A DNA stretch of 64,000 nt. It comes from Candidatus Eiseniibacteriota bacterium (GTDB taxonomy: Bacteria; Eisenbacteria; RBG-16-71-46). Where the stretch lies: positions 32,001 through 96,000 of the forward strand of contig JBBRLX010000008.1 of NCBI GenBank assembly GCA_038231135.1. The letters run 5' to 3'. The stretch's first letter is position 1, and every line of letters starts with the position of its first letter. Positions 47,301 to 64,000 of the stretch are shown piece by piece. The notes below the pieces were generated by a model. It saw only the letters and a program-made list of their open reading frames with translations, was not told the origin of the DNA and did no database searches. The position numbers were made by a program, and so were the translations under genes.

Positions 47301-47573
47301 ACCACCGCCCCCGCCGAAGTCGAAGTCAAGCCGCAGCGCCTTGCCGTGTGCGCCGGCGTCGCTGCTCAACTTCAGCTTTACGCCATCCGCGGGGTGCGCG
47401 GACCAGGCGGAGATGTCTTCGAAGTCGTCGATCGTGGTGCGCGAGCCGATGGCCGTCGCGACGGGCGTGGTGACGGCGAAGGCGGGCGCGGCAGCGGCAC
47501 TCGCGGCGGCGGCGCTGGCGGCGGCGCACATCACCAGCGTCACGACAACTCCGCCGGTCACCGACAGCCTCAT
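44346..47573 (-). CDS. Exported discoidin (F5/8 type C) domain protein with a C-terminal (alpha/alpha)6 glycosidase-like domain
   Basis: Signal peptide, CBM-like IDDFED domain, ASASSS...LAADG...WWRS discoidin, QPGSRSYERSWIRDG, SISHEGYS...HSYWDD, GDMPHTWV; ATGA overlap with the permease. Confidence 0.8.
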   Translation of the reverse strand: MRLSVTGGVVVTLVMCAAASAAAASAAAAPAFAVTTPVATAIGSRTTIDDFEDISAWSAHPADGVKLKLSSDAGAHGKALRLDFDFGGGGGYAVAHRAVSFDVPQNYKFRFTVKGTCTPNDLEFKLIDASGDDVWWYNRRRLAFPAHWDTLATKQRQISFAWGPNPGELRHVAAIEFAVTAGTGGKGTVWLDDLSIETLRPAGGTPPEPRASASSSAPAHRPALAADGAVATWWRSAPGDPRPALTLDLGEGREFGGLVIDWGPNLSASNYGVEGSTDARRWTELRTVRNGNGGRDWLWLPESEARFLSVRTLEAPAARGIGIAELALQPLEFGATLENFYAAIAKHAPRGSYPRGLSGEQSYWAVVGLMGDRDEGLLGEDGAFETGKAQFSIEPFLRVGGRLRTWADVTSRQSLEDGDLPIPIVTWRVDSLELETTAFGLNEGSHIDGEAAFALSYRVRNLSDVPVRATLNLAMRPFQVNPPTQFLNTPGGVATIMSLERNGSMVRVNGNRVLTSLTPPTAFGAATFDQGDIVEFMRENRLPKSQRVDDPFGHASGALAYDLELPAHGDRTILLRIAAIRPMGGSRATRDSSLRSVEPVLGDASYWHTALHLPHIELPPAGAEVLRTLNAQIGWIQVNRDGPAIQPGSRSYERSWIRDGALTSSALLRTGDPKTVREFVEWFAAHQYPNGKVPCCVDARGADPVPEHDSSGELIFAIADYVRYTGDRAFAVKMWPVVARAATYLDSLRHERLTREWSTPANREFHGLLPPSISHEGYSAKPMHSYWDDLFALRGFKDAAWLAQYTGREPERRRWSNVRDEFQRDLRASIGAAMAKHHIDYIPGCADLGDFDATSTTIALDPVDAAAALPPGALQRTFEKYWEFFETRRKTDTWDAFTPYEVRTIGAFVELGWRDRANAALDWFMKYRRPAGWAQWAEVVDHDPRHPRFIGDMPHTWVGSDFVRSVLTMFAYEREADSALVIGAGVPLEWVNTSPGVTVRDLPTPHGLLSYSMHASGDSVVVRIGKGVRVPRGGIVVKAPSAKAFRRAVLGVVTVPVGSQGAVTVRRVPAVLILK

Positions 47574-48391
47574 CCCTTGACGCTCCCCAGCATCACGCCG
47601 CGGATGTACGCGCGCTGCAGCACCAGGAACACTGCCATGACCGGCAGCAGCGTGAGCACGCTGCCCGCCATCATGAGCTCGGTGTCCTGCACGTGCTCGC
47701 CGACGAGGTTGGCGAGCGCGACGGGCAGCGTGTACTTGCGGTCGTCGCTGAGGATGATCAGCGGCCACATGAAGTCGTTCCACATGCTGAGGAAGATGAA
47801 CGTGGCGAGCGTGACGAGGATCGGCTTGAGCAGCGGCATCACGATGGTCCAGAAGATCCGCAGCTCGCCGGCGCCGTCGATGCGCGCGGCGTCGAGCAGG
47901 TCGTCGGGGATCGACAGCGCGTACTGGCGCACCATGAAGATCGCGAAAATCGGCGCCAGCCCGGGGATCATGGCGCCCCACAGCGTGTTCACGAGTCCCA
48001 TTTTCTGCAGCATCAGGAACAGCGGCAGCATGCCGACCTGGCCGGGGATCACGAGCGCCGCGAGCAGCAGCCGGAACGTCGCCTCGCGGCCGGTGAACCG
48101 CAGCTTCGCGAACGCGTAGCCGGCCATGCTGTTCAGCAGCACGGCGATCGCCGTGGTGCCGACCGCGACGATCGTGCTGTTCAGCAAATGCCGCGCGAGG
48201 TCGAGCCGCGTGAACAGCGCAATGTAGTGGGCGAACGTGGCGTGGCTCGGCAGCAGCCGCGGCGGGAACGTGTTCGCCTCGCCCGCGGGCATGAACGACG
48301 CCGACAGCATCCACAGCAGCGGCGCCAGTGTGGCGACCACGCCGAGCGCCAGCAGCACGTGCAGTACGAACGACGGGGCGGCGCGCTTCAT
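47570..48391 (-). CDS. Carbohydrate ABC transporter permease (MalG-like)
   Basis: AGYAFAKLRF, IPDDLLDAARIDGA (EAA loop), WNDFMWPLI. Confidence 0.95.
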   Translation of the reverse strand: MKRAAPSFVLHVLLALGVVATLAPLLWMLSASFMPAGEANTFPPRLLPSHATFAHYIALFTRLDLARHLLNSTIVAVGTTAIAVLLNSMAGYAFAKLRFTGREATFRLLLAALVIPGQVGMLPLFLMLQKMGLVNTLWGAMIPGLAPIFAIFMVRQYALSIPDDLLDAARIDGAGELRIFWTIVMPLLKPILVTLATFIFLSMWNDFMWPLIILSDDRKYTLPVALANLVGEHVQDTELMMAGSVLTLLPVMAVFLVLQRAYIRGVMLGSVKG

Positions 48392-49279
48392 TCAGGCCTC
48401 GCTCCGGCGCTGGATCTGGAGCTGGATCATGGTGCCGATCAGCATGATCACGAACAGCACGAACGCGATCGCGGCGGCGACGCCCATGCGCCACCAGCGG
48501 AACCCCTCCTGGTACATCAGCAGCACGACGGTGGTGGTGCTCTTGAGCGGGCCGCCCTGAGTCATGACGTAGGGCTCGGAGAACAGCTGGAACTGGCCGA
48601 GCATCGTCAGCACGCACACGAACAGCAGCGTGGGTCCCAACCCGGGCAGCGTGATGTGGCGGAATCGCGCCCAGCCGCTGACGCCGTCGAGATCCGCGGC
48701 CTCGTACTGCTCGTCGGGAATGCTCTGCAGGCCGGCGATGAAGATCAGCATGTTGTAGCCGAAGTTCTTCCACACCGCCATCAGGATGATCGCGGGCATA
48801 GCCCAGTGCGGGTTGCCGAGCCAGTCGATCGGCTTGATGCCGAACTGCCCGAGCGCGAAGTCGATCAACCCGTACTGCGGGTGATAGAGGTAGCGCCACA
48901 CGATCGCCACGGCCACCAGCGTGGTGACGACGGGCACGAAGAACACCGAGCGGAAGAACGCCTGAAACCGTGTGAGGCGCGAGCTGACGGCCATGGCGGC
49001 GAGCAGCGACGCCAGCACCGACAGCGGCCCGCCCACCACCACGAAGTAGAACGTGTTGCCGAGCGCCTTCCAGAACTCCGGGTCCGACAGGATGCGCGCG
49101 TAGTTCCCGAGGCCCTGAAACCGCACGTTCGAGAGATCACCGATGGCGTAGAGGTCGAAGTCGGTGAGGCTCAGCACCAGCCCCGCGATCACCGGCAGGA
49201 AGAAGAATACGGTGATCAGGCCCAGCGAGGGCGCGACGAACGCCCAGCCGGCGCGGGTTTCCTGGCGCTCCCCTTTCAC
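48392..49279 (-). CDS. Carbohydrate ABC transporter permease (MalF-like)
   Basis: GLGNY, WKNFGYNMLIFIAGLQSIP, YEAADLDG, MTQGGP. Confidence 0.95.
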   Translation of the reverse strand: MKGERQETRAGWAFVAPSLGLITVFFFLPVIAGLVLSLTDFDLYAIGDLSNVRFQGLGNYARILSDPEFWKALGNTFYFVVVGGPLSVLASLLAAMAVSSRLTRFQAFFRSVFFVPVVTTLVAVAIVWRYLYHPQYGLIDFALGQFGIKPIDWLGNPHWAMPAIILMAVWKNFGYNMLIFIAGLQSIPDEQYEAADLDGVSGWARFRHITLPGLGPTLLFVCVLTMLGQFQLFSEPYVMTQGGPLKSTTTVVLLMYQEGFRWWRMGVAAAIAFVLFVIMLIGTMIQLQIQRRSEA

Positions 49280-50592
49280 GGCTGCCCCGCCGCCGTATGG
49301 CGCGCGCGCTCGAGCATCCAGCGGCGCTTCTCGAGCATCTGGTTCACGTCGCGATCGAGCGCCGCCAGCGCCGAATCGGGCGGCACGTGGCCCAGCACCA
49401 CCGACTCAACGCGGTCCTGCAGCTTCACCGAGATCTGCTCCCACTCGGGCACCTTGGGCGTCGACACGGTTCGGGTGAGCTGCTGCTCGAACGCACGCAG
49501 GTGCGGATCGTTGGTGAGCGCGGTGTCGCGCCACGCCTCGCGCCGCGCGGGCAGGTCGCCAGTGAGGGAACGGAACCGGAGCTGCTGCTCCGGCCGCGAC
49601 AGGAACTCCACCAGCTTCCACGCCTCAGCCTTGTGCTTCGAGGCGCGGAACAGCACGAGGCTCGAGCCGCCGGCCACCGACACGCCGGGGCCGTCGGGCC
49701 CGGGCAGGGCCGCCGTCTCCCACGACGACTGCATCGCGGGCGAGATGCGGTTGCGGAACTCGCCGACCTGCCATGGGCCGCTGATGTACATCGCGAACGT
49801 GCCCCGCTCGAATTCCTGGTAAAGGTTCGCGATCGCGGTACCCGGCACGCGCGGCGCCAGGTCACGCTGGAACAGGTCGATGTAGAACTGCATCGCGCGG
49901 CGGTACGCCGGCCCCTCGAAATCGCCGTGCGTGCCCGTCGAATCGAGCAGTGTCGATCCGGTCTGGAGGCCGAACACGATCCACGGCGTGTATTCATTGG
50001 TCGGCAGGAAGATCGCGTAATGATGCGGCCCACCCTGGCGTTTGATGACCTCCATCGCCTGGCGCCAGTCGGCCCAGTTGGAGGGCATCTCGCGATACCC
50101 GGCGCGGGCGAGCAGGTCCTTGCGATAGAACAGCAGGCGCGTGTCGACGTACCACGGAATGCCGTACGGCACGCCGTCGAGCACGTTGGTGTCCCAGATG
50201 CCGGCGAAATACGCGCTCTCGGGCACGGCGGTGGACGCGCGCAGATAGGCATCGAGCGGCTCGATCGCGTGGAGCGCGCCGAATTCCGCGATCCAGGTGT
50301 TGCCAAGCTGCGAGATGTCGGGCGTGGAGCCGCCGACGTGGGCCGTGAGCAGCTTCTCGTGTGCGGCGCCCCACGGAATCTGCTGGACGAGCACATGGAT
50401 ATTTGGATTCTCGCGCTCGAAGTCGTGCACCAGATCCTGCACCACCTCGCCCTCGCGGCCCATGGCCCAGAACCGCAGCGTGACGGGGCCGGGGCCGGAC
50501 TGCGGGTGGCAGCCGGCGAGCGCGGCGCAGGCGAGCAGCAGCATGATCGCCGCCGCGTGGGCCAGTCGCACGGTCGAATGGGGTCGCATCAT
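49276..50592 (-). CDS. Carbohydrate ABC transporter substrate-binding lipoprotein
   Basis: Lipobox LAGC, PDISQLG, YGIPWYVDTRLLFYRKDL, AMYISGPW. Confidence 0.94.
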   Translation of the reverse strand: MMRPHSTVRLAHAAAIMLLLACAALAGCHPQSGPGPVTLRFWAMGREGEVVQDLVHDFERENPNIHVLVQQIPWGAAHEKLLTAHVGGSTPDISQLGNTWIAEFGALHAIEPLDAYLRASTAVPESAYFAGIWDTNVLDGVPYGIPWYVDTRLLFYRKDLLARAGYREMPSNWADWRQAMEVIKRQGGPHHYAIFLPTNEYTPWIVFGLQTGSTLLDSTGTHGDFEGPAYRRAMQFYIDLFQRDLAPRVPGTAIANLYQEFERGTFAMYISGPWQVGEFRNRISPAMQSSWETAALPGPDGPGVSVAGGSSLVLFRASKHKAEAWKLVEFLSRPEQQLRFRSLTGDLPARREAWRDTALTNDPHLRAFEQQLTRTVSTPKVPEWEQISVKLQDRVESVVLGHVPPDSALAALDRDVNQMLEKRRWMLERARHTAAGQP

Positions 50593-50659
50593 GGGACCTG
50601 CACGCAACACCGGAGGGGCCGCATCGCCGGACCTTACCGCAACGCCGTCCGTGCCCGCA

Positions 50660-52150
50660 TCATCGCGGCGCCCGGTCCAGCCAGCCGCCCGTAAATCCCG
50701 CGGCGCGCAGGCCGCGGATGACGTGCGGGTTCTTCCGCATCGTGCGCCACACCAGGTCCGAACGATAGTTCTCGGTCATGGCGAGAATTGGACCCTCGTC
50801 GATGCCGAGGTAGTCGGTGTCGTACCAGCCGGCGCCCTGGACCACGTGGCCGGCGGAAACGCCGGCGGCGGAATCCCGCAGCGTAGGATTCACGGCGTCG
50901 ACGAACCCGTAGCGTGTGAAGCCGGCGTCGCCGAAGCGATCGCGCATCGCGACCAGCGTCGGCACCACGATCTCGGGCGCGAACGCGATCGAGCCGCCCG
51001 CGGCGCTCGGCGAGATCGTGCCGTCATCGCGCACCGTGTTGAACGTCGCGCCGCGCGGCCAGTAGGTGTGGAACTCGCGTGATCGGCCCGCGATCGTCCG
51101 GGTGCCGTCCAGCGGTCCGTCGCACGCGGTGAGTCCCCACATCCGATCCCCGTAGCCCGCCCAGTTGGCCGGGTTGTCGATCGCATAGGCATGCTGCGCC
51201 AGCGTCGCGCGCCGCGAGTTCTCGAAGTAGTCGAGCCCGCGCGCGCGCATGACGCTGTCGCGGATGCCGCGGAAGTCGACCCAGATGTGCGTGTACTGAT
51301 ATCCGAACAGCGGGGCGAACCCGAGGTAGTCCTGGCCGTGGAACGTGCCCCACTTGTAGCCCTCGGTGTAAGCCGTCCACGTCTTCGGGTGCACCCGGTG
51401 TGTCGTCGAGCCCAGCGCCAGGATCTGCACCAGCATGGTCTCGTTGTAGCCGCGCCAGTCGTACGGCAGGTGGCCGTGCTCCGGATCCCAGCCCAGCACG
51501 ATCGTGGGCGGCCGGATCTGGGTCCACGTCCAGTCGGCGCGGTCGTAGAGCGAATCGGCGATCGCGCGAATTCTCGCTTCCCGCGGATTCGCGCGATCGA
51601 AGTACGACTGGCAGAACAACGCACCCGCGAACAGCAGCGCCGAATCCATCGTCGACAACTCGACGTCCTTGAAGCGCGCGCCGGTCTCGGGCACCAGGAA
51701 GTGATAGAAGAATCCGCGGTAGCCGGTGCTGCCCGCCCGAGCGGTGTCCTCCCGCGCGGTCCAGAAGAACTCCAGCGTGCGGAGCACGCGCTCGGCGGCA
51801 GCCTCGCGCGTGACGTAGCCGCGCTCGGCACCGATCGGGTAGGCGGTGAGCGCGAACCCGACCGCGCCCACGCTGATGAACGATTGCGTCGGCCAGCGGT
51901 CGGGCGTGAGCCCGCGCAGCGAATCGCTCAGGTCCCAGAAGAATCCGAACGTGCGGCGCTCGAGCGTGTCGAGGAACGCGGTCTGGCGCGCGCTCGGAAC
52001 GAACTTGCGTGCGGGAGCCGTGGGCGTCGCGGTGGCGCCGCCGGCGTGGGCCATCGTCGCGGGCTGGCAGCCGGTGGTGATGAACAGCGCGGCCGCCATG
52101 GCGACTGCCAGCGCCCAGGCCGCGGGCGCGAGACTGGTCCGCACCGTCAT
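50660..52150 (-). CDS. GH144 (glucoamylase-like/DUF3131) beta-1,2-glucanase, lipoprotein
   Basis: Lipobox-like TTGC; GFFYHFL, ELSTMD, WRGYNE, PLFGYQYTHIWVDFR, YFENSRRAT, WGLTACD, GIDEGP. Confidence 0.85.
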   Translation of the reverse strand: MTVRTSLAPAAWALAVAMAAALFITTGCQPATMAHAGGATATPTAPARKFVPSARQTAFLDTLERRTFGFFWDLSDSLRGLTPDRWPTQSFISVGAVGFALTAYPIGAERGYVTREAAAERVLRTLEFFWTAREDTARAGSTGYRGFFYHFLVPETGARFKDVELSTMDSALLFAGALFCQSYFDRANPREARIRAIADSLYDRADWTWTQIRPPTIVLGWDPEHGHLPYDWRGYNETMLVQILALGSTTHRVHPKTWTAYTEGYKWGTFHGQDYLGFAPLFGYQYTHIWVDFRGIRDSVMRARGLDYFENSRRATLAQHAYAIDNPANWAGYGDRMWGLTACDGPLDGTRTIAGRSREFHTYWPRGATFNTVRDDGTISPSAAGGSIAFAPEIVVPTLVAMRDRFGDAGFTRYGFVDAVNPTLRDSAAGVSAGHVVQGAGWYDTDYLGIDEGPILAMTENYRSDLVWRTMRKNPHVIRGLRAAGFTGGWLDRAPR

Positions 52151-55100
52151 CCGAGCACCACGTCCACGCGATGCACTTCGCCGTCGCGCAGCACGGGAAC
52201 GCTCACGCCATCCTCCGCCACGTCGAGAGCCTCGCCGTCGAGGCTCGCCGACACCACGCGCCCCGCGCGCTTGCCGCGGCGCTCCACACGCACCTCGTAG
52301 CGTCCCGCGGTTCCCGGCACGCGCCAGTCGAGCTCATAGCCCGGCCAGTCGTCGGGGATCCGCGGCGCGATCACCAGCGTGTCGCCGCCGTGCCACGTGA
52401 CCCCCAGCACTGATTCGATCGTGACGCGCAGCATCCAGCCCGCCGAGCCCGTGTACCAGGTCCAGCCGCCGCGGCCGACGTGGGGAGCGGCGCCGTACAC
52501 GTCCGCCGCGATCACGTACGGCTCCACGCGATAGTTCGCGATGCGCGCGGGAGTGCGGGTGTGGGTGACGGGGCTCAGCATCTCGAGCAGTGGTGCCGCG
52601 CGGTCGCGGCGGCCCAGCTCGGCCAGCGCGCGCACCACCCACAGCGCGGCGTGCGTATACTGCCCGCCGTTCTCGCGCACGCCGGGCACGTAGCCCTTGA
52701 TGTAGCCCGGGTCGTGCGGAGTGTGCTCGAACGGCGGCGTGAGCAGCCGGATCAGCCCTTCCGCCTCCGACACCAGCAGTTTCTCGACCGCATCCATCGC
52801 CCGCCCGGCCCGCGCCGGCGGCACCGCACCGGAGATCACCGACCATGCCTGCGCCAGCGCGTCGATGCGGCATTCGTCGCCGGTCTTGGAACCGAGCGGC
52901 GTGCCGTCGTCGTAGTAGCCCCTGCGATACCAACCACCGTCCCAGCCGCCGGACTCGAGCGCGGCCACGAGTTTCGCGCGATGCTGCGCGTAGCGTGCGG
53001 CGCGGGCGGTGTCGCCGCGGCGTTCGCACGCCGGGATGAAGCCGCCGAGCACGGCGTGGAGGAAGAACCCCATCCACACGCTCTCGCCGCGGCCCTCGCG
53101 CCCCACGCGGTTCATGCCGTCGTTCCAGTCGCCGGTGCCGAACAACGGCAGACCGTGGGCGCCGGTCGCGAGCGAGCGGTCGATCGCGCGGCAGCAGTGT
53201 TCGTACACGATCCCCGCCCGGCCGGCGTCCGTCGGTTCGAGCAGCGCCTCGTCCTCGCCCGGCTCGAGCTGGCGCGCCCTTAGGAAGGGTGCAGACTCGT
53301 CGAGCACGCTCCAGTCGCCGGTCTGGTCCACGTAGTTCATCGCCAGATACGGCAGCCATAGCAGGTCGTCCACAAAGCGCGTGCGCAGCCCGCGATCCGA
53401 CGGCGGGTGCCACCAGTGGAGCACGTCGCCCTGCGCGAACTGGTGGCCGGCGTGCAGCAGCACCTGGCCGCGCGCGAGCTCGGGCGCCCACATCGTCAGC
53501 GACATCGCGTCCTGGAGCTGGTCGCGGAACCCGTACGCGCCGCCCGACTGGTAGAACGCCGACCGCGCCCAGATCCGGCACGCCAGCGTCTGGTAGGCGA
53601 GCCAGCCGTTCGCCATGAGATCGATCGCGGGCCGCGGCGTGGAGATTCGCACCCCCGACACGAGCTCCGCCCAGAACGCCCGCACCTCGGCGAGCGCCGC
53701 GTCGATCGCGCCCGGCGCGCGGTAACGGCGCGCGAGCGCCCACGCCGCGGCTGGATCGCGCGCCTCACCCAGCAGGAATGTCACGACGCCCGTGGCGCCC
53801 GCGGCCACGTCGAGCCGCGCGCGCAGCGCGAAGCACGGCTCGCGATCGGTGCCGGTCGCTCGGTCGAGATCGCGGCCCTCGGCGACCGCCCGGGGCGCGG
53901 CCACCGTGCCGCGCGTGCCCAGGAACGACGCGCGGTCGCCGGTGAAACCCGGCCGCGGCGCGCCGGCGGGCAGCACAGCCGCGGCGAACGCGGAGCTCGC
54001 GGGCAGCGTGTCGCGCTCGCGGCGCCGCGCGAGCAGCACACCCGCGTCGGTATCCCACGTCGTGATCAGGGTACGCGCCGCGGCCCTGGGATCGTCGCCC
54101 AGGACCAGGCGCTGATACGAATACACCGCGAGCCGCCGCGGCCTGGAACCCAGGTTCGTGATCGCGACCGACACCACCTTGAGCGGATCCTCGCGCGGCA
54201 CGAACAGCGTGGTGTCGTGTTCGAGCCCGTGGCTCGCGTGGGTGCAGCGGGTGTAGCCGAAGCCGTGGCGCACCTCGTAGCCGGCGGCCGCCGGAGCCGG
54301 ACCCGGCAACGGCGACCAGTATTCGCCGGTGTCCTCGTCGCGCACGTACCACGCCTCGCCGTGCGGATCGAGCAGCGGATCGTTGCTCCACGGCGTGAGC
54401 CGGTACTCGCGGCTGTTGCCGCTCCACGTCGAGCCCGCGCCGGTCTCGCTCACCAGGGTGCCGAACGATTCGTTCGCGAGCACGTTGATCCACGGCGCCG
54501 GCGGCCGCAGCAGCCCGGCGCGGGCACGGTGCGGCAGGCGGATCACATACTCGGAACCGTCTGCCGAGAACGCGCCGTGGGCATTCCGCTCGCGCAGCTG
54601 TTCCGGGCGCGCGGCGCGCCGCGGCGGCCGCGCCGGAGCCCGCGGCGCTTCCGGAGGCGACTCGTAGTTCCGGGGCAGGCTGTCGAGCAGCGAGGCATGG
54701 CGCCCGTGCGGCTTGCCGCCGACGGGCGTGGTGCCCTGGAGCTGCGCCACCGTCGCCGCGTCGCGCCGCGCGGCCTCGGCGGCGCTCACGCCCTCGAGCG
54801 CGTGCGCCTCACGCGCGTGGGCGGCGGCGCGCTCGAACGCGGCGTTCGCCGTGGCGACGGGCCGCCGCACCAGCGCCAGCGCCTCGTCGCGCCCGGCGGC
54901 GGCACCGAGCAGCAGCAGCACCCGCGCCGTACCGCCGGGCGCGAGCCGTACGACGCGGCGCAGACTCACCACCGGATCGAGCACGTTGCCCACGGTGCCC
55001 GACAACCGGCCGCTGCCGGTCAGCGCCCGCGGCGACTCGAGACTCCCACCGCGGCCCACGAACCGCTCGCGGTCGGTCTCGTGCTGAACGGCCCCCGGCC

Positions 55101-55698
55101 CCGGCATGGCGTGCACGAGCCAGGGATGCGTCTCATCGGGGCTGCGCGGGCGGCGGCGCACCAGCAGTGCGCGCTCGGCGGCGGCCCATTCGGTCTGTAG
55201 AAACAGCTTGGAGTACGCGGGGTGCGCGGCATCGGCCGCGGCGTCGTGCAGCACCACCTCGGCGTAGCTCGTGACTTCGATGCGGCGCGCGCGGCGCGAA
55301 CGGTTGTGCAACGTGACGCGGCGCACCTCGAGCGGCAGTCCCGGATCGACGCAGACTTCGAGTCGCGACTCGATGCCGTGATCGCGGCGCGCGATTTCGA
55401 ACACCCCCGGCCGCCAGATCGCGTCGTACGCCTCGGGCGCCGACCGCACGGGCTCGTGGCCCGCCGACCACACCTGGGCGCCGTCGAGATCCCGCAGATA
55501 CACGAGTGTGCCCTCGCGATCCTCGATCGGATCGCCGGCCCAGCGCGTGAGCGTGGTCGCCCCGCACGTCGTCACGCCGGTGCCGTAGGCGGTGATCACC
55601 GCCTGGAACGCGGCGTCGCCGAGCACCGCCGCGGGCGTCAGCGGCGTCCGGGGTCCGGTCACGCCCGGGCTAGGCGGCGCGACTTCGATCGTGGACAT
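52147..55698 (-). CDS. GH94 phosphorylase of the Cgs/NdvB C-terminal type (probable beta-1,2-oligoglucan phosphorylase)
   Basis: Two beta-sandwich units (HPAYSKLF; PAPWINVLAN, RLTPWSNDP), YQSGGAYGFRDQLQD, GDWNDGMN, RENGGQYTHAA, GRGGWTWYTGSAGW; no GT84 domain and no TM segments. Confidence 0.88.
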   Translation of the reverse strand: MSTIEVAPPSPGVTGPRTPLTPAAVLGDAAFQAVITAYGTGVTTCGATTLTRWAGDPIEDREGTLVYLRDLDGAQVWSAGHEPVRSAPEAYDAIWRPGVFEIARRDHGIESRLEVCVDPGLPLEVRRVTLHNRSRRARRIEVTSYAEVVLHDAAADAAHPAYSKLFLQTEWAAAERALLVRRRPRSPDETHPWLVHAMPGPGAVQHETDRERFVGRGGSLESPRALTGSGRLSGTVGNVLDPVVSLRRVVRLAPGGTARVLLLLGAAAGRDEALALVRRPVATANAAFERAAAHAREAHALEGVSAAEAARRDAATVAQLQGTTPVGGKPHGRHASLLDSLPRNYESPPEAPRAPARPPRRAARPEQLRERNAHGAFSADGSEYVIRLPHRARAGLLRPPAPWINVLANESFGTLVSETGAGSTWSGNSREYRLTPWSNDPLLDPHGEAWYVRDEDTGEYWSPLPGPAPAAAGYEVRHGFGYTRCTHASHGLEHDTTLFVPREDPLKVVSVAITNLGSRPRRLAVYSYQRLVLGDDPRAAARTLITTWDTDAGVLLARRRERDTLPASSAFAAAVLPAGAPRPGFTGDRASFLGTRGTVAAPRAVAEGRDLDRATGTDREPCFALRARLDVAAGATGVVTFLLGEARDPAAAWALARRYRAPGAIDAALAEVRAFWAELVSGVRISTPRPAIDLMANGWLAYQTLACRIWARSAFYQSGGAYGFRDQLQDAMSLTMWAPELARGQVLLHAGHQFAQGDVLHWWHPPSDRGLRTRFVDDLLWLPYLAMNYVDQTGDWSVLDESAPFLRARQLEPGEDEALLEPTDAGRAGIVYEHCCRAIDRSLATGAHGLPLFGTGDWNDGMNRVGREGRGESVWMGFFLHAVLGGFIPACERRGDTARAARYAQHRAKLVAALESGGWDGGWYRRGYYDDGTPLGSKTGDECRIDALAQAWSVISGAVPPARAGRAMDAVEKLLVSEAEGLIRLLTPPFEHTPHDPGYIKGYVPGVRENGGQYTHAALWVVRALAELGRRDRAAPLLEMLSPVTHTRTPARIANYRVEPYVIAADVYGAAPHVGRGGWTWYTGSAGWMLRVTIESVLGVTWHGGDTLVIAPRIPDDWPGYELDWRVPGTAGRYEVRVERRGKRAGRVVSASLDGEALDVAEDGVSVPVLRDGEVHRVDVVLG

Positions 55699-55780
55699 GA
55701 GGGGTGGACTCCGTCCCGCGGACCGCAACGGACCGTGGGACCGGCGAAATGGAACGGGCGGGCGTACGGCGCAACCGCGG

Positions 55781-57364
55781 TCAGCGCAGCAGCACGCACT
55801 TCTGGAGCTGGGAACGATTGCCGGCATCGAGCCGGTAGTAGTACACGCCACTCCCGAGCCCGCGGCCCCGGAGCGTCACCACCTGATTGCCTGCCGGCCG
55901 CACCCCGTCGACGAGCCGCGCGACTTCGCGTCCGGTCACGTCGTAGACGCGCAGCGTGACGTGCTCCGTAACCGGCAGCCGGAACCGGATCGAGGTCTCG
56001 TCGCGGAACGGATTCGGCTCGCTGCGCAGCAGCAGCAAGTCGCCCGCCACGGCGGGCCCCGGCACGTCCGTGGTGGTGCGCAGGAAGCCCGCCTTCGCGA
56101 GGCCAACCTGCACGTAGGAGTTCTGCATGAAGCGGTCCCAGATCGAGCTGTTGAGGTAGTTCTCGATCATCAGCACCATCGGGCCCTGATCGATGCCGAG
56201 GAAGTCGGAATCGTACCAGGGCGTGCCGGTGAGGTTGAACGCGTCGCGGAACCCGTACGTGCCCCATAGTTGGGGATACGCGTTCCGCATGTTGCGAATC
56301 GCGGGGATCGAGATCTCGGGCGCGAACGGCAGCGAGCTGGTCGCCGCGGTCGGAGAGATCGTGCCGTTGTCGGTCTGCGCCGGCGGCGCGCCGTGCGCGT
56401 TATAGCCGCCCGGGTCATCGCTGGCCGTGAGACCCCACAGGCTGTCGCTGTAGCCCGTGAAGTGGCCGGGGTTCGCGATGCAGTAAGCCCGCTGCGCGAG
56501 TGTGGCGCGGCGCGAGTTCTCGAAGTAGGTGATGCCCTTGCCGCGCATGTACGTGTCGGCAATGTAGCGGAAGTCCACCCAGCAGTGCGAATACTGATGA
56601 CCAAATAGCGGCGGGAAGATCACGTAGGTCTGGCCATACTGGGTTTGATAGTTATAGTTGCTGGTCCAGGTGTTCCACGGATTGCCGGAGCCTGCGGTTG
56701 CGGGATGGGTCGGGGAACCGAGCGCCAGGATGTAGATGATCATGCCCTCGTTGTAGCCAACCCATTGTCCGTAGCCGGCGAAGCCGGGGCCGCCCGGCTG
56801 AAAACCCATCAGGATGCCGGGGTTGAGGTTCTGCATGAACCGCCAGTCGGCCCGGCGGTAGATCGAATCCGCCCGCGCGCGAATCAGCGTCTCCAGCGAG
56901 TCGGTGCTCGAGAAGTACTGGCGCGCGTGCAGCATGCCCGCGAACAGTAGCGCGGTGTCGATCGTCGACAACTCCGAGTCGTAGGTGCGCCCACCCGTAT
57001 TCATGTCGAGGAAGTGCCAGAACAGGCCTTTGTACCCGATCGTCCCGCTCACGCTGTTGCCCTGCGGAAAGTTCCAGAACGTATTGAGCGTGGTGAGCAC
57101 GCGGTCGCGGCCCTGATCGCGCGTGATCCAGCCGTGATCGATGCCGACCGTGATCGCCGACAGGCCGAATCCGACCGCGGCGATGCTCGCCGGCGAGCCC
57201 GACGTGCTGCGGTCGCGGACCAGCCCGTTGCTGGGGTTGGCCTCGTTCCAGAAATACGAAAACGCCCGGTGCTGGACGCTGTCGAGCAGTGCTTCGGTGG
57301 TCTGGGCGCTCGCGGCCGTCGTGAACGTGAGCAAGGCTGCGAGTGCGAGGAGCGTGCGTATCAT
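55781..57364 (-). CDS. GH144 beta-1,2-glucanase with FlgD/T9SS-type CTD
   Basis: Signal peptide, ELSTID, WVGYNE, PLFGHQYSHCWVDFR, GIDQGP..MIENY, then PNPFRDETSIRF...SGVYYYRL...QKCVLLR. Confidence 0.88.
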   Translation of the reverse strand: MIRTLLALAALLTFTTAASAQTTEALLDSVQHRAFSYFWNEANPSNGLVRDRSTSGSPASIAAVGFGLSAITVGIDHGWITRDQGRDRVLTTLNTFWNFPQGNSVSGTIGYKGLFWHFLDMNTGGRTYDSELSTIDTALLFAGMLHARQYFSSTDSLETLIRARADSIYRRADWRFMQNLNPGILMGFQPGGPGFAGYGQWVGYNEGMIIYILALGSPTHPATAGSGNPWNTWTSNYNYQTQYGQTYVIFPPLFGHQYSHCWVDFRYIADTYMRGKGITYFENSRRATLAQRAYCIANPGHFTGYSDSLWGLTASDDPGGYNAHGAPPAQTDNGTISPTAATSSLPFAPEISIPAIRNMRNAYPQLWGTYGFRDAFNLTGTPWYDSDFLGIDQGPMVLMIENYLNSSIWDRFMQNSYVQVGLAKAGFLRTTTDVPGPAVAGDLLLLRSEPNPFRDETSIRFRLPVTEHVTLRVYDVTGREVARLVDGVRPAGNQVVTLRGRGLGSGVYYYRLDAGNRSQLQKCVLLR

Positions 57365-57417: not shown

Positions 57418-58437
57418 TCAGAACGTCAAACCCACCGACACTCGATGGGTGCTGCCCAGCCGTCCCTGGTCGGCCCACGCGTAGTCGAGCCGGTATGCGT
57501 ACACGTCAATCTTACCCTGAACGCCGCCGCCAGCTGTCAGGCCGACCTCGGATTCGGGTAGAAACGCATTCTGATAGCCCAAACGCAGGGCAAACTGGTT
57601 GCGATAGGTCAATTCGGCGCCCGCGCTCATGCTCTCGGCGTTGTCGTTGGGGTGGAATGCGTCGACCGCAAGATTGAGCCGTGTCGCGGGATTGATCCGC
57701 ACCGGCAGGCCGAGCCCGACCCGGAACAGCAGCGGCACCGAGAACGGGTCGGTGAACTCCTCCGCCGGCAGCTGTCCGTTGTCGCCGAACACCGAGGGGT
57801 CCTGGTCGTACGTCACACGCAGGTCGCGCCCGCCGTAGCGTCCCTGGGTGCCGAAGTTCGACAGGCTGGCGCCCAGATGGAGGCCGTTCTCCGAGGTGCG
57901 GAACAGCGTCCCGATGTTGATCACCGAGGTCGTCAGCGAGGTGTGCCAGATCGTCTCCTGGACGTACGAGAACTGGATGCCGGCCGAGAACCTGTCGGTG
58001 ATCTCCTTGCCGTAACCCAGGCCGATCGCGACATCCGACACGCGGTACAGTTCGCCGGTGCCGAGCGGAGCGCTCACCGTCCGCACCTCGATGTCGCCCG
58101 AGTTGAGCGACGTCACCGAGGCGTAGCCGTTGCCCCACTTGCCGAGCGGCAGCGCCCCCGTGATGTGGTCGTAGGTGATGCCGGCGATCCACGCGCTGTG
58201 CGAGACCAGCAGCGCCGCGCCGCCCTCGCGTCCGATCGCCGCCGGGTTGTAGTACACGGCGTCGAGTCCGTAATCGAGCGACACGCCGGCGTTGCCCATC
58301 CCGGCGATGCGCGCGCTCGGCTCGATCAGCAGGAAGTCACCGACCGTCGTGCCCGACTTGCTCTGGGCCTCCGCCGTCCGGGCGGACAGCAGCGACGTCA
58401 GGATGGCCGCGATCCACAGGTGCCGGGTCGGCGTCAT
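57418..58437 (-). CDS. PorV/PorQ family outer-membrane beta-barrel
   Basis: FLLIEPSARIAGMG, YYNPAA, DVAIGLGYG, alternating beta-strands, ends HRVSVGLTF (terminal Phe). Confidence 0.88.
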   Translation of the reverse strand: MTPTRHLWIAAILTSLLSARTAEAQSKSGTTVGDFLLIEPSARIAGMGNAGVSLDYGLDAVYYNPAAIGREGGAALLVSHSAWIAGITYDHITGALPLGKWGNGYASVTSLNSGDIEVRTVSAPLGTGELYRVSDVAIGLGYGKEITDRFSAGIQFSYVQETIWHTSLTTSVINIGTLFRTSENGLHLGASLSNFGTQGRYGGRDLRVTYDQDPSVFGDNGQLPAEEFTDPFSVPLLFRVGLGLPVRINPATRLNLAVDAFHPNDNAESMSAGAELTYRNQFALRLGYQNAFLPESEVGLTAGGGVQGKIDVYAYRLDYAWADQGRLGSTHRVSVGLTF

Positions 58438-61400
58438 TTGATCACCGCGAACTTGCCCACATAGTCGCCGATGCCCGGCGCCGCCACATGATAGACGAAC
58501 AGCCCCGGTGCCACGTCCAGGTTGTCGCGTGTCCTCAGGTCCCACGCCACGAACCCGTTGTTCGAGCCGTCCTGGCGCAGCGTCTGCACCAGATCGCCGC
58601 GCACGGTGTAGATGCGGATCACCGAACCCTGCGGGATCGCGCGGAACTCCAGGCGCCGGTCGCCGCGGCCCGAGGTCGCGAACCGGGCCGGCTCGAACGA
58701 CGCCGCACCCGTGTACGGGTTCGGCACCACGTACGGCTTGTCCGCCCACGCCACCTTCGCCGCGGCGGGATCCACGTGCTGCGCCTGCGTCGAGAACGTG
58801 AACACGTCGTCCGAGCTGAGCGGACGCCTCAGCCTCAGGTCGAAGACGTCGCCGGCATGCGGCGCCACGATCGGCCCGCGGAGGCCCTGCCCCAGCGTGT
58901 CGAGCTGGACACGCCACGTCACCTGCGAGTCCCGCGTCGCCACGTTCGCGAACGTCATGATGTCGATCAGTTCGTCGGCCCGGCTGAGCGTGCCGTTGTT
59001 GTCGAAGTCACGGAACCGGAAGTCGAGCTGCCGGTCGCCCTGCGGCGTGTGCGCGACGATCAGGAACTTGGCGGGCTTGGCCTGGAACCCGATGCCGGCC
59101 ACGATCGCCGTGTCCTTCACCACGTCGTAGAACGTGATCGTGATGTCGTCGGGGTAGCCGGGCCGCCGGAAATTGCTCCCCAGCGTCTTGGAGTAGATCA
59201 CCGACAATCGCGTGTTCGTCCGCCCGACGTTGCTGTCCGGCTCGAACCCGGTGCGCGTCGGATCGACGGTGGTCTCGGGCGCGTTCACGATCACCGGCAG
59301 CAAGCCGTCTCCCACCGGGCCGATGCCCTCGCCGTTCAGGTCGGTCCCGGACCCGAACAGCCTGGTCCCCGCGGTGCTGTCGAACATCGCGTACGACGTG
59401 GCGCGGATGCTGTCGGAATCGGGCGTCGCGAATGTGATCTTGAATACGTGGTCCTGCGGAATCAGGTTCGAGTCCACGATCCGGAGCGCGACCTGCCCGC
59501 TGCCGCGGCCTGCGACGTGCGCGGCGGTGTCCACTGTGGCACCGACGAAGCCGGGCACCATGGGATTCGGCCGCACCGCGACCGCGTTCGGCGGCAGGAT
59601 CAAGCCGCCGCGCGGCGTGCGCGACACCGAGATCGAGTTCTCGGACGGGTAGAACGCCAGCGAATCGGGCACGCCGTCGGGCGAGCCGTAGTCGTAGGAG
59701 GTCACGGCGTAGTAGTACTGCTGCCCGTTCACGGCCGAGGTGTCGGTCCAGGTGTGCGTGATGCCGGTCTCGTTGCCGAGGAAGTACGCGACGCCATCCA
59801 CGGTCTTCTTCGAATAGCCCTGGCGCCCGTCCTTGAGGTCGAACTGGATGATCGGTTTGCCATTCACCGGCAGCGGATTGCCGCGGCCGCTGGTGAGCAC
59901 GTGCGCGTCGAGGAAATCGGGGTCGGTCGCGCGGTAGATGCGGTACCCCTCGAAGTCGTTGACGAACGACACCGGGTCGATCGAGCGCTCGGCGACGTCG
60001 TCCCACGACAACCGCACCTTCCCGTCGCCGGCCTCGGCGCGCAGCGTCGGCTGCTGCGGCGGCACCGCGAACTGGTAGTTCGCGGTGTAGATCTGCTGCA
60101 CGGTATGGATCGTCTCGCGCAGCTCCGACAGGTCCGCGGCATAGGACAGCGCGAGGCTGAACCGCTCGCGCTTGCCGGCCTCGAGCCGGAACGGGCCCGA
60201 CGCGAACAGGAATCCGATGTTGTAGTTCGCCGCGACCGCGGAATCGAATCGCGCCGCCGGGTTCAGGTCGGTGAAGTGCTCGTACAACCGCTGCGGCCAG
60301 TTGTTGTTGTCGGTGAAGAACAGGATGTCGTCGGTGCGCGTATCGGGATTGCCGACACCGGCCTTGATCCGGTTCATCTTGAAGCCGGTGAGGCCGATCT
60401 GGTCGGACTCGTTGAGGTCGGTGCGATCGAAGTTCGGCTCGCCCTCGGTGGGGATGCCGTCGCCCTCACCGGTGTCGTGCGTGTCGGGGATGCCGTCGGC
60501 GCCGACGTCGTTGAGGTCGGCGGTCCAGTCCAGGTCCTCGTCCCCCGTCCACCAGCGCCCGGCACGAAACGCCGGCCGGTTGTCGAGCAGCCCGTAGTAC
60601 GCCTCGAATTTCGCGAGATCGTAGTGCGCCTCGACGTAGGCGCGGATCGCCGGCTTGCCCTCGATCAGCGTGCCCGGACCGCCGTCGCGCTTCTCGTCGG
60701 TGATGCCGTCGCCGTCGTTGTCCACCCCGTCGAACGGATTGCCGGGGGTCTCGAGGTACGAGTAGCCCATGTAGCCGGTCGGCGAGCAGCGGCCCGCGAG
60801 ATCGACGCCGTGCCCGTAGGTGTCCCACGTGTACACCAGGTTCAACCCCAGCGACTTGTCGAAGAACGCATTGTCGTCGTCGGATTCGTAGACGCCGTCG
60901 CACGACAACGCCGAGCCGCCGACGCCCGAGTCCATGTAGAGCCCGAACACGACGTTGTCGTCGTAGGTCGTGGTGCCTTCGTTCGTGATGTCGTAGTGCC
61001 AGAAGATCACGTTGCCGGCCTGCGGATTCGACCACTGGAATCCACGCACCTCGACGCGCAGCCCGAGCCCGTGGCGACTGAGATCGGTGCTGTCGGGATT
61101 GAAGTCGAACGCGTCGTAGAAATCATCGTCCATCACCGTGAACGATTCCTGGTCCGCCGCCGGGCGTTTGCCGAAGTAGCCGTCCCACGAGCCGCTCCAG
61201 CCCGGATCGTCGGGGTCGATGAGCTTGTCGGGCCAGCGGTTCGGCCACGTGCGCGGGTCGTTGCTGATCGCGGGCGACCGGCCGCGGTTGATCGTGGGGT
61301 CGGCCTGGGAAAATCCGGGCCGCGGCTCGAAGCGCATCACGCGGTTGAAGTACGGGCTGATGCCCTGCCGCTCGCGGAAACCGGTCTCCATGATGTACGC

Positions 61401-61754
61401 GTCGAGGCCGCTGTTCTGCCGGACCTTGGCGAGCACGAACGGCGTGACGCCGTCCGAGTAGTTCATCCCGCTGCCCTTCGGCGCCTCGGCGGAGTGGAAC
61501 ACCGACAGGTCCACGTTGCCGGGATCCGCCGGGTAGTCGCCGACCATGCCGAAGTTCCAGAACACCGTGCGCAGGTTGTTCGCGTCGTGGGTGCCCGACC
61601 GCTCGGCATCGATGCGGCCACGCTCGGCGGGCGGCTGCGAGGTGGCGCCGGCGGGCCGCGGTGGCGCGGAGTGCTTCGCGGCGGCGGCCGGACCCGCCGC
61701 GGCGCACAGCGCCAGCGCCGCGGTGATCGCCGCCGCCCACCGCGCGCGCATCAC
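58434..61754 (-). CDS. Large secreted hypothetical protein with Asp/Gly Ca-binding-like loops, FN3-like domain and T9SS-like CTD
   Basis: Signal peptide; DNDGDG and DGIPD loops; AGDGKVRLSWD...FEGYRIYR...YYYAVTSYD; C-terminus VVPNPY...IRIYT..GDLV...WDL...GKFAVIK; ATGA overlaps on both sides. Confidence 0.85.
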   Translation of the reverse strand: MMRARWAAAITAALALCAAAGPAAAAKHSAPPRPAGATSQPPAERGRIDAERSGTHDANNLRTVFWNFGMVGDYPADPGNVDLSVFHSAEAPKGSGMNYSDGVTPFVLAKVRQNSGLDAYIMETGFRERQGISPYFNRVMRFEPRPGFSQADPTINRGRSPAISNDPRTWPNRWPDKLIDPDDPGWSGSWDGYFGKRPAADQESFTVMDDDFYDAFDFNPDSTDLSRHGLGLRVEVRGFQWSNPQAGNVIFWHYDITNEGTTTYDDNVVFGLYMDSGVGGSALSCDGVYESDDDNAFFDKSLGLNLVYTWDTYGHGVDLAGRCSPTGYMGYSYLETPGNPFDGVDNDGDGITDEKRDGGPGTLIEGKPAIRAYVEAHYDLAKFEAYYGLLDNRPAFRAGRWWTGDEDLDWTADLNDVGADGIPDTHDTGEGDGIPTEGEPNFDRTDLNESDQIGLTGFKMNRIKAGVGNPDTRTDDILFFTDNNNWPQRLYEHFTDLNPAARFDSAVAANYNIGFLFASGPFRLEAGKRERFSLALSYAADLSELRETIHTVQQIYTANYQFAVPPQQPTLRAEAGDGKVRLSWDDVAERSIDPVSFVNDFEGYRIYRATDPDFLDAHVLTSGRGNPLPVNGKPIIQFDLKDGRQGYSKKTVDGVAYFLGNETGITHTWTDTSAVNGQQYYYAVTSYDYGSPDGVPDSLAFYPSENSISVSRTPRGGLILPPNAVAVRPNPMVPGFVGATVDTAAHVAGRGSGQVALRIVDSNLIPQDHVFKITFATPDSDSIRATSYAMFDSTAGTRLFGSGTDLNGEGIGPVGDGLLPVIVNAPETTVDPTRTGFEPDSNVGRTNTRLSVIYSKTLGSNFRRPGYPDDITITFYDVVKDTAIVAGIGFQAKPAKFLIVAHTPQGDRQLDFRFRDFDNNGTLSRADELIDIMTFANVATRDSQVTWRVQLDTLGQGLRGPIVAPHAGDVFDLRLRRPLSSDDVFTFSTQAQHVDPAAAKVAWADKPYVVPNPYTGAASFEPARFATSGRGDRRLEFRAIPQGSVIRIYTVRGDLVQTLRQDGSNNGFVAWDLRTRDNLDVAPGLFVYHVAAPGIGDYVGKFAVIK

Positions 61755-64000
61755 TGCCCCACCTGCATGCTGACGCCGAGCTGGACCTTCCGCGGCGCGA
61801 AGAACCGGGTCGGATTCGCGAGCTGATCCGCGTCACGGACCAGGTCCGCCGTGGGCGCGTAGTACGGGCTGCCGGTGGTGTCGAACACGTAGCCGTTGAA
61901 GTACCGGGTGTCGAACACGTTGAACACGCGCGCGAACGCGCGGACGGCCCCCGGGCCGCGGCCGAACGTCTTCTCGCCCCGCAGGTCCACGGCCATCGAA
62001 GCCGGGTGGCGTCCGGAGTTGTCCTCGAGCCCGAAGCCGAACCCGACAGCACGCACCGGAGTGTAGGGCTGGCCGCTCGCCACGCGTACGACGGCGCTCA
62101 AAGAGAACCCGCTGTCGCGCGACGCCTCGACCGTCGCGTTGAGCGTATGACGCTGGTCCCAGTTGAACGGCACCTGCCGCGGCCGCGGATCCTCGCCCGC
62201 CGACGCGCGGGTCGCGGTCTCGCGCGGGTCGCTGGAGTTGCCCTGCGCGAGCTGCCAGGTGTAGTCGATCGAGCTGCTGAACAGGCCACGGCGGCGCTGC
62301 GACAGCGCGATCGTCACTCCGGTCACGCCCCCGAAGTCCACGTTCGTGAGCCGCGCGTACTCGGCGCCGTTGTAGGTGGTGACGAACTGGACGCCCAGCA
62401 GGTCACGGATGTCCTTGTAGAAGATGCCGGTGTCGAGCCCGAGCCAGTCCGTGAGCCGCTGTTTGTAGCCGAACTGATACTGCACGGTCTTCTCGGGCTT
62501 GATGTCGGGATTGCCCATCACGCTGAAGTTCGGGACATCCGCCTGCAGATCGCTCAGCACCCCGTAGTTGGAATTGGTGAACACGTCGCCGATCGACGGC
62601 ATCTGGTAGAAGTGGCCATAGGCGAAGAACAGCGACGCGTCGCTCGTGACGGGGTACGACACGCCGACGCGCGGCGAGATCGAGTACTTGGCGGACGTGC
62701 GGACCGGATGCGACAGCGGCGCGCCCTGGATCGAGTTCGCGGGATTTTCGAGGTCGCTCGGCAGGCTGGACCGGGCGTCGAAGAAGTCGAACCGGAATCC
62801 CGCGCGCACGCGCAGGTCGTTCCACTCGCCATCCTCCTGCGCGAACGCGGCGCCGATCAGCGGCGAGTTGAGCTGAACGCCCGGAAATTTCGGCGGGTCA
62901 TGGTCGTAACGCGCGAGGAACTGCCGCCCGGTGAGGGAATCCGTCACGTACGACAGCACTCCGGGACTGCCGAATTTCACCTGCGGCCACTGCATCTCGG
63001 CGCCGAGCTTGAGCGTCTGGTCGCGGTTCACCTGGTGCGTGAACGACGACTTCGCCACGATCGCGTCGGTGTTCTGCTTGAACCGGTTGAGGTCCACGCC
63101 CTGGACGAACGCGTCGTACAGGAACCCGGGCACGTTCTTCGGCGGACCCGCGAGGTCGTAGCGCGGGTCGTACAGGTTGTCGAACGCGAGGTCCTTGTAG
63201 TCGAAGTAGTTCTGCCGCAGGCTCACGTTGTAGAACGTGGCCTTGCTGACCGTGTGCGTGACGTCGACGCCGTGCGCGACCGAGAACGTGTGCTGCCGGG
63301 TGAGACCCTCGGGGTCGAACCGGTAGTTCCAGTCGGCGCGGCGCGAGTCGATGTAGTTGACGATGGCCTGATAGCCGATCTCGACGTTCGGGATCGACCG
63401 ATTGGTGACTTTGCCGATGCCCGACCACTCGCGCGAGAAGCCGAGCGGCTCCTGGCCCAGGTCGCCGTCCGGGTTGGTGGCCTTGGCGACCGGATTCCCG
63501 GTCGGGGTCAGCCACGGCGTGTAGACCCGCGTGCCGCGCACGTAGTCGTCGAACAGGTGGTAGCTGCCGCTCGTCAGATACGTGGTCTTCGGCACGAACA
63601 GCGGGCCGCTGGCGCTGAGCTGGTAGTTCTGCTCGCCCGCCGGCCAGAACGCGTAGCGCGGCTGCGGGATGAATGACCGGAAGAACACCGGAGTCGAGGA
63701 CGGATCCCGGCGCGCCACGTCGTACAGGAACCCGCCGCTCAGCACCTCGCCGTCCCAGCGGAACTTCTCCGAGCCCCGCCGCAGCACCGCGTTCACGACG
63801 CCGCTCATCGCCTGGCCGTACTCGGCGTCGAACGTGCCGCTGATGACCTGTACCTCCTCGAGCAGCGAGCGGTCGATGCGCAGGCTCGACTTGTTGTCGT
63901 AGGCGTTGTTCACCGACACGCCGTCGACCTGGAACTGCACCTCGCCGCCGCGGCCGCCGCGGAAGTGCAGATCACCGCCCTGCGACACCACGCCCGCCTG
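61751..64000 (-). CDS. TonB-dependent receptor (N-terminus beyond the right edge)
   Basis: Plug motifs LHFRGGR..EVQFQVDGV and SGTFDAEYGQAMSGVVN; barrel motifs SPRVGVSYP, GNPDIKPEKT, WDQRHT. Confidence 0.93.
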   Translation of the reverse strand, partial: QAGVVSQGGDLHFRGGRGGEVQFQVDGVSVNNAYDNKSSLRIDRSLLEEVQVISGTFDAEYGQAMSGVVNAVLRRGSEKFRWDGEVLSGGFLYDVARRDPSSTPVFFRSFIPQPRYAFWPAGEQNYQLSASGPLFVPKTTYLTSGSYHLFDDYVRGTRVYTPWLTPTGNPVAKATNPDGDLGQEPLGFSREWSGIGKVTNRSIPNVEIGYQAIVNYIDSRRADWNYRFDPEGLTRQHTFSVAHGVDVTHTVSKATFYNVSLRQNYFDYKDLAFDNLYDPRYDLAGPPKNVPGFLYDAFVQGVDLNRFKQNTDAIVAKSSFTHQVNRDQTLKLGAEMQWPQVKFGSPGVLSYVTDSLTGRQFLARYDHDPPKFPGVQLNSPLIGAAFAQEDGEWNDLRVRAGFRFDFFDARSSLPSDLENPANSIQGAPLSHPVRTSAKYSISPRVGVSYPVTSDASLFFAYGHFYQMPSIGDVFTNSNYGVLSDLQADVPNFSVMGNPDIKPEKTVQYQFGYKQRLTDWLGLDTGIFYKDIRDLLGVQFVTTYNGAEYARLTNVDFGGVTGVTIALSQRRRGLFSSSIDYTWQLAQGNSSDPRETATRASAGEDPRPRQVPFNWDQRHTLNATVEASRDSGFSLSAVVRVASGQPYTPVRAVGFGFGLEDNSGRHPASMAVDLRGEKTFGRGPGAVRAFARVFNVFDTRYFNGYVFDTTGSPYYAPTADLVRDADQLANPTRFFAPRKVQLGVSMQVGQ

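Follow-up and report, generated by a model that had tools for sequence, protein, structure and literature searches.

In SusC/SusD (RagA/RagB) and the other transporter-lid pairs of the Bacteroidia, the gene for a TonB-dependent transporter (TBDT) is followed by that for an invariant surface partner, a lipoprotein that acts as a lid. Here, we describe a trio of adjacent genes in the genome of a Candidatus Eiseniibacteriota bacterium (assembly GCA_038231135.1), in which a TBDT is followed by a large protein with a putative type IX secretion system (T9SS) C-terminal sorting domain (CTD), and then by an outer-membrane barrel of the PorV/PorQ family. The trio occupies positions 57418-64000, all on the minus strand, of a 64,000-nucleotide stretch (C8:32001-96000, where C8 is contig JBBRLX010000008.1; hereafter, the window). 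Two kinds of T9SS proteins also invite comparison. In the attachment complex of Porphyromonas gingivalis, PorZ and PorU keep their tails uncleaved, and the barrel PorQ holds PorZ at the cell surface (excerpts of PMC10947112 and PMC11285876), while cargo with a type B CTD is encoded ahead of a dedicated anchoring barrel, PorP/SprF, as in SprB-SprF and PG1035-PorP (excerpts of PMC12618676 and PMC9143113). Lastly, a β-1,2-glucan cluster of Ignavibacterium album, which has been studied for its enzymes, comprises GH144 enzymes, a GH94 enzyme, an ABC binding protein, and a TBDT suggested as the importer (Kobayashi et al., 2022; PMC8861115, in part); the portion of that text consulted names the TBDT alone and calls the other genes unpredictable. 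Two of our loci from I. album metagenome-assembled genomes (L031 and L037) have the large protein after the TBDT, and may correspond to the published GH144 cluster.

The trio shares some features with each of these systems and departs from all of them. As in SusC/SusD, a TBDT followed by a near-invariant partner forms the centre of substrate-specific loci that include carbohydrate-active enzymes (CAZymes), proteins with carbohydrate-binding modules (CBMs), and LacI. However, the TBDT of the trio falls below the SusC cut-off, its partner is a non-lipoprotein with an Fn3-like domain and a CTD and without a SusD or TPR match, and a third gene, for the barrel, is almost always there. A PorV/PorQ-family barrel and perhaps a tail of the uncleaved class are shared with PorZ-PorQ and PorU-PorV, but the cargo of the trio resembles PorZ or PorU in the tail only, its barrel fails both equivalog cut-offs, and cargo and barrel come with a TBDT in catabolic loci, each genome having several paralogous copies, in carriers that were searched for GldM and in which it was not found. 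The gene order, cargo and then its own barrel, is that of the type B systems; in contrast to these, none of 43 homologues of the large protein matched the type B model TIGR04131, the barrel belongs to the PorV/PorQ family, and it is a TBDT, rather than PorE or a gliding track, that completes the set.

We conclude that the trio is a conserved outer-membrane cassette, with near all-or-none co-occurrence of its three genes. As to its function, we lean towards the large protein being a barrel-tethered surface partner of the TBDT, so that the trio would be an analogue of SusCD made from T9SS parts. These parts are of known kinds, whilst their combination and the middle family appear to be new: both are apparently undescribed in the literature searched, which did not extend to subscription journals or bioRxiv supplements, and the sections consulted of PMC12635249, PMC12102758, and PMC5317091 hold nothing on the trio or the large protein.

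Conservation of the trio across genomes

The initial annotation of the window, made from the sequence alone, had proposed the three genes, and all three open reading frames (ORFs) are indeed present at its positions on the minus strand. We then compared homologous loci from GTDB, taking the best 80 of the 592 found. These are labelled Eisenbacteria, Krumholzibacteriia, Ignavibacteria, Calditrichota, KSB1, Rhodothermales, Chlorobiales, Kryptonium, Marinimicrobia, and Cloacimonetes, among others, and 16 of the 80 were too short for both sides to be tested. A TBDT gene lies directly upstream of the large protein in 71 of 72 testable loci, a barrel gene directly downstream of it in 68 of 69, and it has both neighbours in 63 of 64; the single exception to the last count (L081) has all three genes, reordered. 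Sixty more loci were picked by hand, and all three genes were found in 39 of the first 40 (one reordered, and one with an inserted gene) and in 19 of the other 20, with neither partner within the stretch examined in the two exceptions.

The genes around the trio vary from locus to locus. A scan of 73 neighbours, out of 125 candidate ORFs, found glycoside hydrolases (GH94, GH2, GH3, GH10, GH13, GH16, GH17, GH26, GH30, and GH35/42), an amidase, and peptidases of families S51 and M14, with no match to SusD. Type A CTD proteins with CBM9_1, CBM4_9, or CBM20 domains flank many trios other than that of the window. The expectation that the triad would be kept, with varying CAZymes, across many phyla of the Fibrobacterota-Chlorobiota-Bacteroidota (FCB) type was thus confirmed. 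Paralogous trios also diverge as units, in that the nearest neighbour by one gene was within the three nearest by another for 89-94 of 113 paralogous trios. Genes for PPIC-type peptidyl-prolyl isomerases (PPIases) adjoin several trios (12 of the 73 neighbours; L084, L085, L087, L095, L100, L106, L110-L113, and L116), a hint of dedicated folding helpers.

The three genes had further been described as joined by ATGA overlaps, with a matched stoichiometry of their products as the suggested consequence. The overlap at 58434-58437 is indeed ATGA, but that at 61751-61754 reads GTGA, or is a 1-base overlap (TGATG). Moreover, overlap-compatible sequence was kept in only 28 of 55 homologous loci at the TBDT stop, and likewise in 28 of 55 at the stop of the middle gene, so that a matched stoichiometry is not supported.

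There are four trios in the host genome, on C8, C35, C3, and C2 (the last with an inserted gene), and their large proteins are homologous over the N-terminal domain, the Fn3-like domain, and the tail. Four of the 14 TBDTs of this genome sit in these trios, and these same four are the best matches to a profile of the triad TBDT. The other three trios (C35:6011-13247, C3:98206-105768, and C2:89211-96265) had no obvious catabolic neighbours in a look at the unannotated sequence. In front of the trios on C35 and C3 there is, in each case, a further protein of 470-545 amino acids (aa) resembling an outer-membrane protein, whilst the gene inserted on C2, between those for the barrel and the large protein, looks NHL-repeat-like by eye. 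Orphans occur too: two full members of the large-protein family (C16:30411-32813 and C24:49967-52402), a 434-aa protein sharing mainly the tail (C2:176563-177867), and two triad-type TBDTs (C14:87466-90093 and C4:199507-202014). The full orphans are closest to the C35 trio, and could be alternative partners that share the C35 barrel.

The transporter, the large protein, and its barrel

The gene for the TBDT runs beyond the window edge; in full it spans C8:93751-96555 and encodes 934 aa from the first ATG. An N-terminal CarboxypepD_reg domain, a Plug domain (residues 158-253), and a TonB barrel (residues ~262-934) all exceeded their Pfam cut-offs, and residues 145-150 (EVVVSA) form what we take to be a TonB-box-like motif. 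The SusC/RagA model TIGR04056 gave 61.8 bits against a cut-off of 368, the match being confined to the N-terminal part. In the smallest trio, at L139, the TBDT (L139:3681-6032) ends at 784 aa, apparently without the last strands, which would point to a frameshift or an assembly error.

The 1105-aa large protein belongs to an extensive family without a name. It comprises 2144 of 8000 proteins scored, and 6645 clusters (at 50% identity) at E ≤ 0.001 and 906 at E ≤ 1e-30. Of the named homologues, those nearest to the protein come from Candidatus Eisenbacteria, and members of the close clade, including a KSB1-labelled protein at 66%, are 65-79% identical over 1100 aa. No Pfam domain matched the protein at E ≤ 0.01, which upholds the earlier view that it has no SusD or TPR features. 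Among 43 homologues, FlgD_ig was matched by three, fn3 by one, and CHU_C weakly by one. Enzyme families in Pfam, NCBIfam, PDB, and the ESM Atlas gave no match, nor did CBM families in the domain scans, and the nearest ESM Atlas clusters are all without a name. The protein was also correctly judged not to be a lipoprotein: the cysteine at position 17 lies within the signal peptide, there is no conserved lipobox, and 89 of 120 homologues have no cysteine at positions 11-40.

Within the close clade, whose loci are of the β-1,2-glucan type (see below), residues 40-335 are the most conserved part (0.86), whereas alignments of paralogues show the N-terminal domain to diverge. An acidic, DxDxDG-rich insertion (residues ~336-460) is missing from short paralogues, and the Fn3-like domain is kept in all four triad paralogues of the host genome. 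The partner encoded at L139, with 624 aa, consists of the N-terminal domain, the Fn3-like domain, and the tail, the linker domains being missing.

The tail itself, of 105 residues by alignment, ends in VVPNPY...GKFAVIK. It had been called distinct from that of the neighbouring enzymes, and so it proved, with the type A model TIGR04183 scoring 33.4 (vs. 23) for the neighbouring enzyme and, like PF18962, giving no match to the large protein, whose tail exceeded no curated CTD cut-off. When a profile of the family was compared with PDB, the only matches were the tails of PorZ (5m11, E 0.0055) and PorU (6za2, E 0.0074) and one Fn3 domain; a second profile matched the PorZ and PorU tails weakly (E 0.086 and 0.57). 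Among the same 43 homologues, NCBIfam models for PorZ matched 25 (best E 4e-7), those for PorU 13, and type A also 13 (TIGR04183 at E ≤ 0.01, best 3e-5). From these weak but recurrent matches, the tail may, weakly, be placed nearest to the uncleaved PorZ/PorU class, and such a likeness would fit retention of the large protein on its own barrel. All 116 close homologues keep the lysine of the last strand (K1100), which is often an arginine in distant ones. A conserved lysine of type A tails contacts PorV (PMC10994853, in part), and K1100 may be its counterpart.

The barrel passed the cut-off of the PorV/PorQ family model (NF033709, 180.8 bits vs. 90), but not those of the equivalogs for PorV (NF033710, 61 vs. 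250) and PorQ (NF033711, 83 vs. 220). In PDB, its profile had a single natural match, F. johnsoniae PorV (6h3i_F, E 8e-26), and no match to PorP/SprF was obtained. Eight PorV/PorQ-family genes are present in the host genome, four of them in trios, and PorU has its own adjacent barrel on C30, which is 25% identical to the triad barrel. Hence, the initial idea of a dedicated PorV stands insofar as the barrel is extra to a housekeeping PorU-PorV pair, but the protein is a member of the PorV/PorQ family and not PorV proper. The backbone of a quick tree of the PorV family was unresolved, and hence we claim no single clade for the triad barrels.

Locus context and the secretion machinery of the host

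The features of the trio and of the genes downstream are collected in Table 1. The PF10091 enzymes are, we believe, of GH144 type.

Table 1. Features of the trio and its downstream context (window coordinates)
Feature	Position	Strand	Basis or remark
TBDT, 3' 749 codons	61751..64000	-	Pfam and NCBIfam domain scans
Large CTD protein, 1105 aa, family without a name	58434..61751	-	Start ATG 61751 or GTG 61754
Sec-type signal peptide, residues ~1-26, without conserved lipobox	61674..61751	-	Sequence
N-terminal domain, residues ~40-563	60063..61634	-	Boundaries inferred from alignments
Fn3-like domain, residues ~564-730	59562..60062	-	Profile match to 3mpc (E 0.014); alignments
Variable linker domains, residues ~731-1000	58752..59561	-	Mean identity 23%
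Putative C-terminal sorting domain, PorZ/PorU-like class	58434..58751	-	VVPNPY...WDL...G.Y.Y.V...GKFAVIK
PorV/PorQ-family outer-membrane barrel, 339 aa	57418..58437	-	NF033709
PF10091 glycoside hydrolase with type A CTD; downstream context outside the triad	55781..57364	-	Domain scan
Remainder of the locus, as context: GH94, another PF10091 enzyme, an ABC solute-binding protein, and two genes resembling permeases	47570..55851	-	Domain scan

The genes upstream of that for the TBDT encode a type A CTD protein of 677 aa, LacI, and then another CTD protein; as predicted, there is no SusD. The 677-aa protein (C8:96578-98611) has CBM9-like domains (hhalign, 92%), and is a candidate β-1,2-glucan-binding protein. 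In 42 of 43 close-clade loci, it is the immediate upstream neighbour of the TBDT. The more distant CTD protein (791 aa, C8:99946-102321) is also of type A; inside it, a domain of an unnamed family is duplicated, and the protein occurs in ~10 of 48 long loci. Downstream, the operon ends with a large glycosidase-like ORF (44346-47573, minus strand) that has CBM11-like and F5/8 domains and a weak match to an oligosaccharide amylase; as listed, this 1517-aa ORF starts in the opposite frame context of the permeases, so that its real start should be later. A gene nearby (40630-41985, plus strand) is presumably that of a β-glucosidase, judging by GH1 motifs, and several Eisenbacteria-like loci have homologues of it beside the trio. 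A scan of the locus for promoters and terminators gave nothing above chance.

A GH144-type catalytic domain was found in 42 of the 43 close-clade loci (of at least 15 kb), and either GH144 or GH94 in all 43, which points to β-1,2-glucan as the substrate. Judging by its gene content, the locus is likely to be of the β-1,2-glucan type, and the importer is here likely to take up β-1,2-gluco-oligosaccharides.

The initial annotation had asked for SprA in the genome, and SprA was found above cut-off in the host, as well as in 47 of 50 other carrier genomes (50 of the 80 carriers were taken). PorU likewise passed in the host (433.7 vs. a cut-off of 420, on C30), which has dozens of CTD-like proteins and nine matches to TonB_C. 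With the SusD models PF07980 and PF14322, nothing was found in this 93%-complete genome, the Bacteroides thetaiotaomicron control being positive. GldN and GldL were not found in the host either, in searches that had no positive control and might have missed divergent homologues.

Weighing the explanations

In the explanation that we favour, the large protein would be exported through SprA on its own barrel, stay bound to that barrel by an uncleaved tail, and present its N-terminal domain to the adjacent TBDT as a surface partner and predicted capture lid, with the barrel taking the place of the lipid anchor of SusD. The housekeeping PorU-PorV pair would deal with the type A CTD proteins of the locus, namely, the GH144-type enzyme and the CBM9-like protein, which would serve as a surface enzyme and a glycan-binding protein, respectively. 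Our confidence differs from step to step. Export and tethering of the large protein are very probable, by analogy with the PorZ-PorQ, PorU-PorV, and type B CTD-PorP/SprF pairs. A physical partnership between the large protein and the TBDT, to which gene linkage points, seems fairly probable, and the same linkage makes it conceivable, at a little under an even chance, that the N-terminal domain captures substrate above the mouth of the barrel. With still more reserve, we suggest that the trio could represent a second ancient architecture for lidded import in the FCB group outside the Bacteroidia, that is, a TBDT with a T9SS-exported cap and a private PorV-like barrel replacing the lipid, the cap being delivered by a SprA translocon that would work without the GldLM motor.

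Several observations weigh against the favoured explanation. Four members of the large-protein family are without either partner (C16, C24, L120, and L131). When proteins of the C16 type and lone TBDTs of the C14 type were counted in 37 genomes, the orphan state of each homologue in its own genome being unchecked, both were present in 18, the protein only in 10, the TBDT only in six, and neither in three, so that the two types show no association; a C16-type protein does, on the other hand, adjoin a triad-type TBDT in three genomes of other orders. No fusion of the TBDT with its partner was found among proteins of 1993-5000 aa, which is weak evidence. The matches to PorZ and PorU tails are themselves weak (E 0.005-0.6). 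The co-phylogeny that the initial annotation had put forward as a check turned out not to be informative: tree distances of the middle protein correlate with those of the TBDT (r 0.93) and the barrel (r 0.86), but equally with those of the upstream CBM9-like protein (r 0.93), so that co-divergence reflects linkage. That same protein could be the real glycan binder. In addition, SusD is present in 10 of the 50 carriers (39 gave no match), and in 19 of 34 carriers within a sample of 78 genomes of one phylum; the cassette is thus often found in genomes without SusD, yet is not exclusive of it. Mutual information between the proteins of 113 paired trios (Neff 93) gave top scores in a few recurring columns, no higher than the noise within the barrel, and was therefore of no use. 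Finally, GldM, divergent homologues aside, was not found in the host or in any of the 50 other carriers with a model that passes in 19 of 81 genomes of the control phylum. In F. johnsoniae, the release of cargo from SprA requires the motor (PMC10994853, in part), and so release from SprA in these organisms is left unexplained.

The last point bears on two alternatives. One has the trio as an accessory to a T9SS without a motor, in which a TonB-energised receptor pulls the barrel and its cargo off SprA in place of GldLM. PorF, a listed T9SS component, is TBDT-like, carriers of the trio have SprA, and three of the four trios of the host lack an obvious catabolic neighbour. Moreover, the large protein (E ≤ 1e-50) occurs in 34 of the 78 genomes, which are among those 81, and GldM above its cut-off in 19, but none has both. 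However, 25 have neither, the exclusion follows class boundaries, and these genomes are kin rather than independent, so that we read this as a lineage pattern and not as a statistical test; many paralogous trios, moreover, lie in substrate-specific and often LacI-linked loci, for which a general motor would have no need. We regard this accessory role as improbable, although a motor-less T9SS may be widespread outside the Bacteroidia. The other alternative, that the large protein is periplasmic and its tail an Ig-like module that docks from the periplasmic side on the barrel or the TBDT, would likewise be in keeping with our failure to find GldM, GldN, and GldL in the host (with a positive control for GldM only), and with a tail that exceeds no curated CTD cut-off. 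Against it stand the presence of SprA, PorU, and dozens of CTD-like proteins in the host, and the binding of CTDs by the extracellular loops of PorV (PMC10994853, in part), and we give it hardly any weight.

A tethered large protein might instead be a scaffold, stabiliser, or assembly factor, with glycan binding left to the CBM9-like type A CTD protein. The near-constant presence and equal co-divergence of the latter in the close clade, the CBM proteins flanking many other trios, the want of any CBM match in the large protein, and the recurrence of PPIase genes beside trios would all suit such a role. Nevertheless, it is the flanking CBM protein that changes by locus and the large protein that is nearly constant; also, residues 40-335 are the part most conserved within the clade and the N-terminal domain diverges between paralogues, as would be expected of a specificity domain. 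We consider this role unlikely, but it is the least so of the alternatives. There is a similarly slight chance to that of the motor-less accessory that the large protein is a surface-tethered enzyme, a hydrolase or transglycosylase of an unnamed family, which feeds the TBDT. Whilst the very high conservation of the close clade and many invariant acidic and aromatic residues are what one would look for in an enzyme, no enzyme family was matched in any of the databases searched, the same family occurs beside glycan, peptidoglycan, and peptide enzymes, most of the invariant acids are located in the insertion that short members lack, and the loci have hydrolases of their own.

If the large protein is, as we favour, a tethered surface partner of the TBDT, then the trio offers an unannotated family (the 906 clusters noted above) a role that can be tested, and extra PorV-like barrels a function. 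It also poses the question of cargo release from SprA wherever GldM is not found in a genome. Ignavibacteria, Calditrichota, KSB1, Marinimicrobia, Eisenbacteria, and their relatives are abundant polymer degraders, many of them without SusD, and in these organisms the cassette would serve, like susC/susD, as a marker for utilisation loci and for new enzymes.

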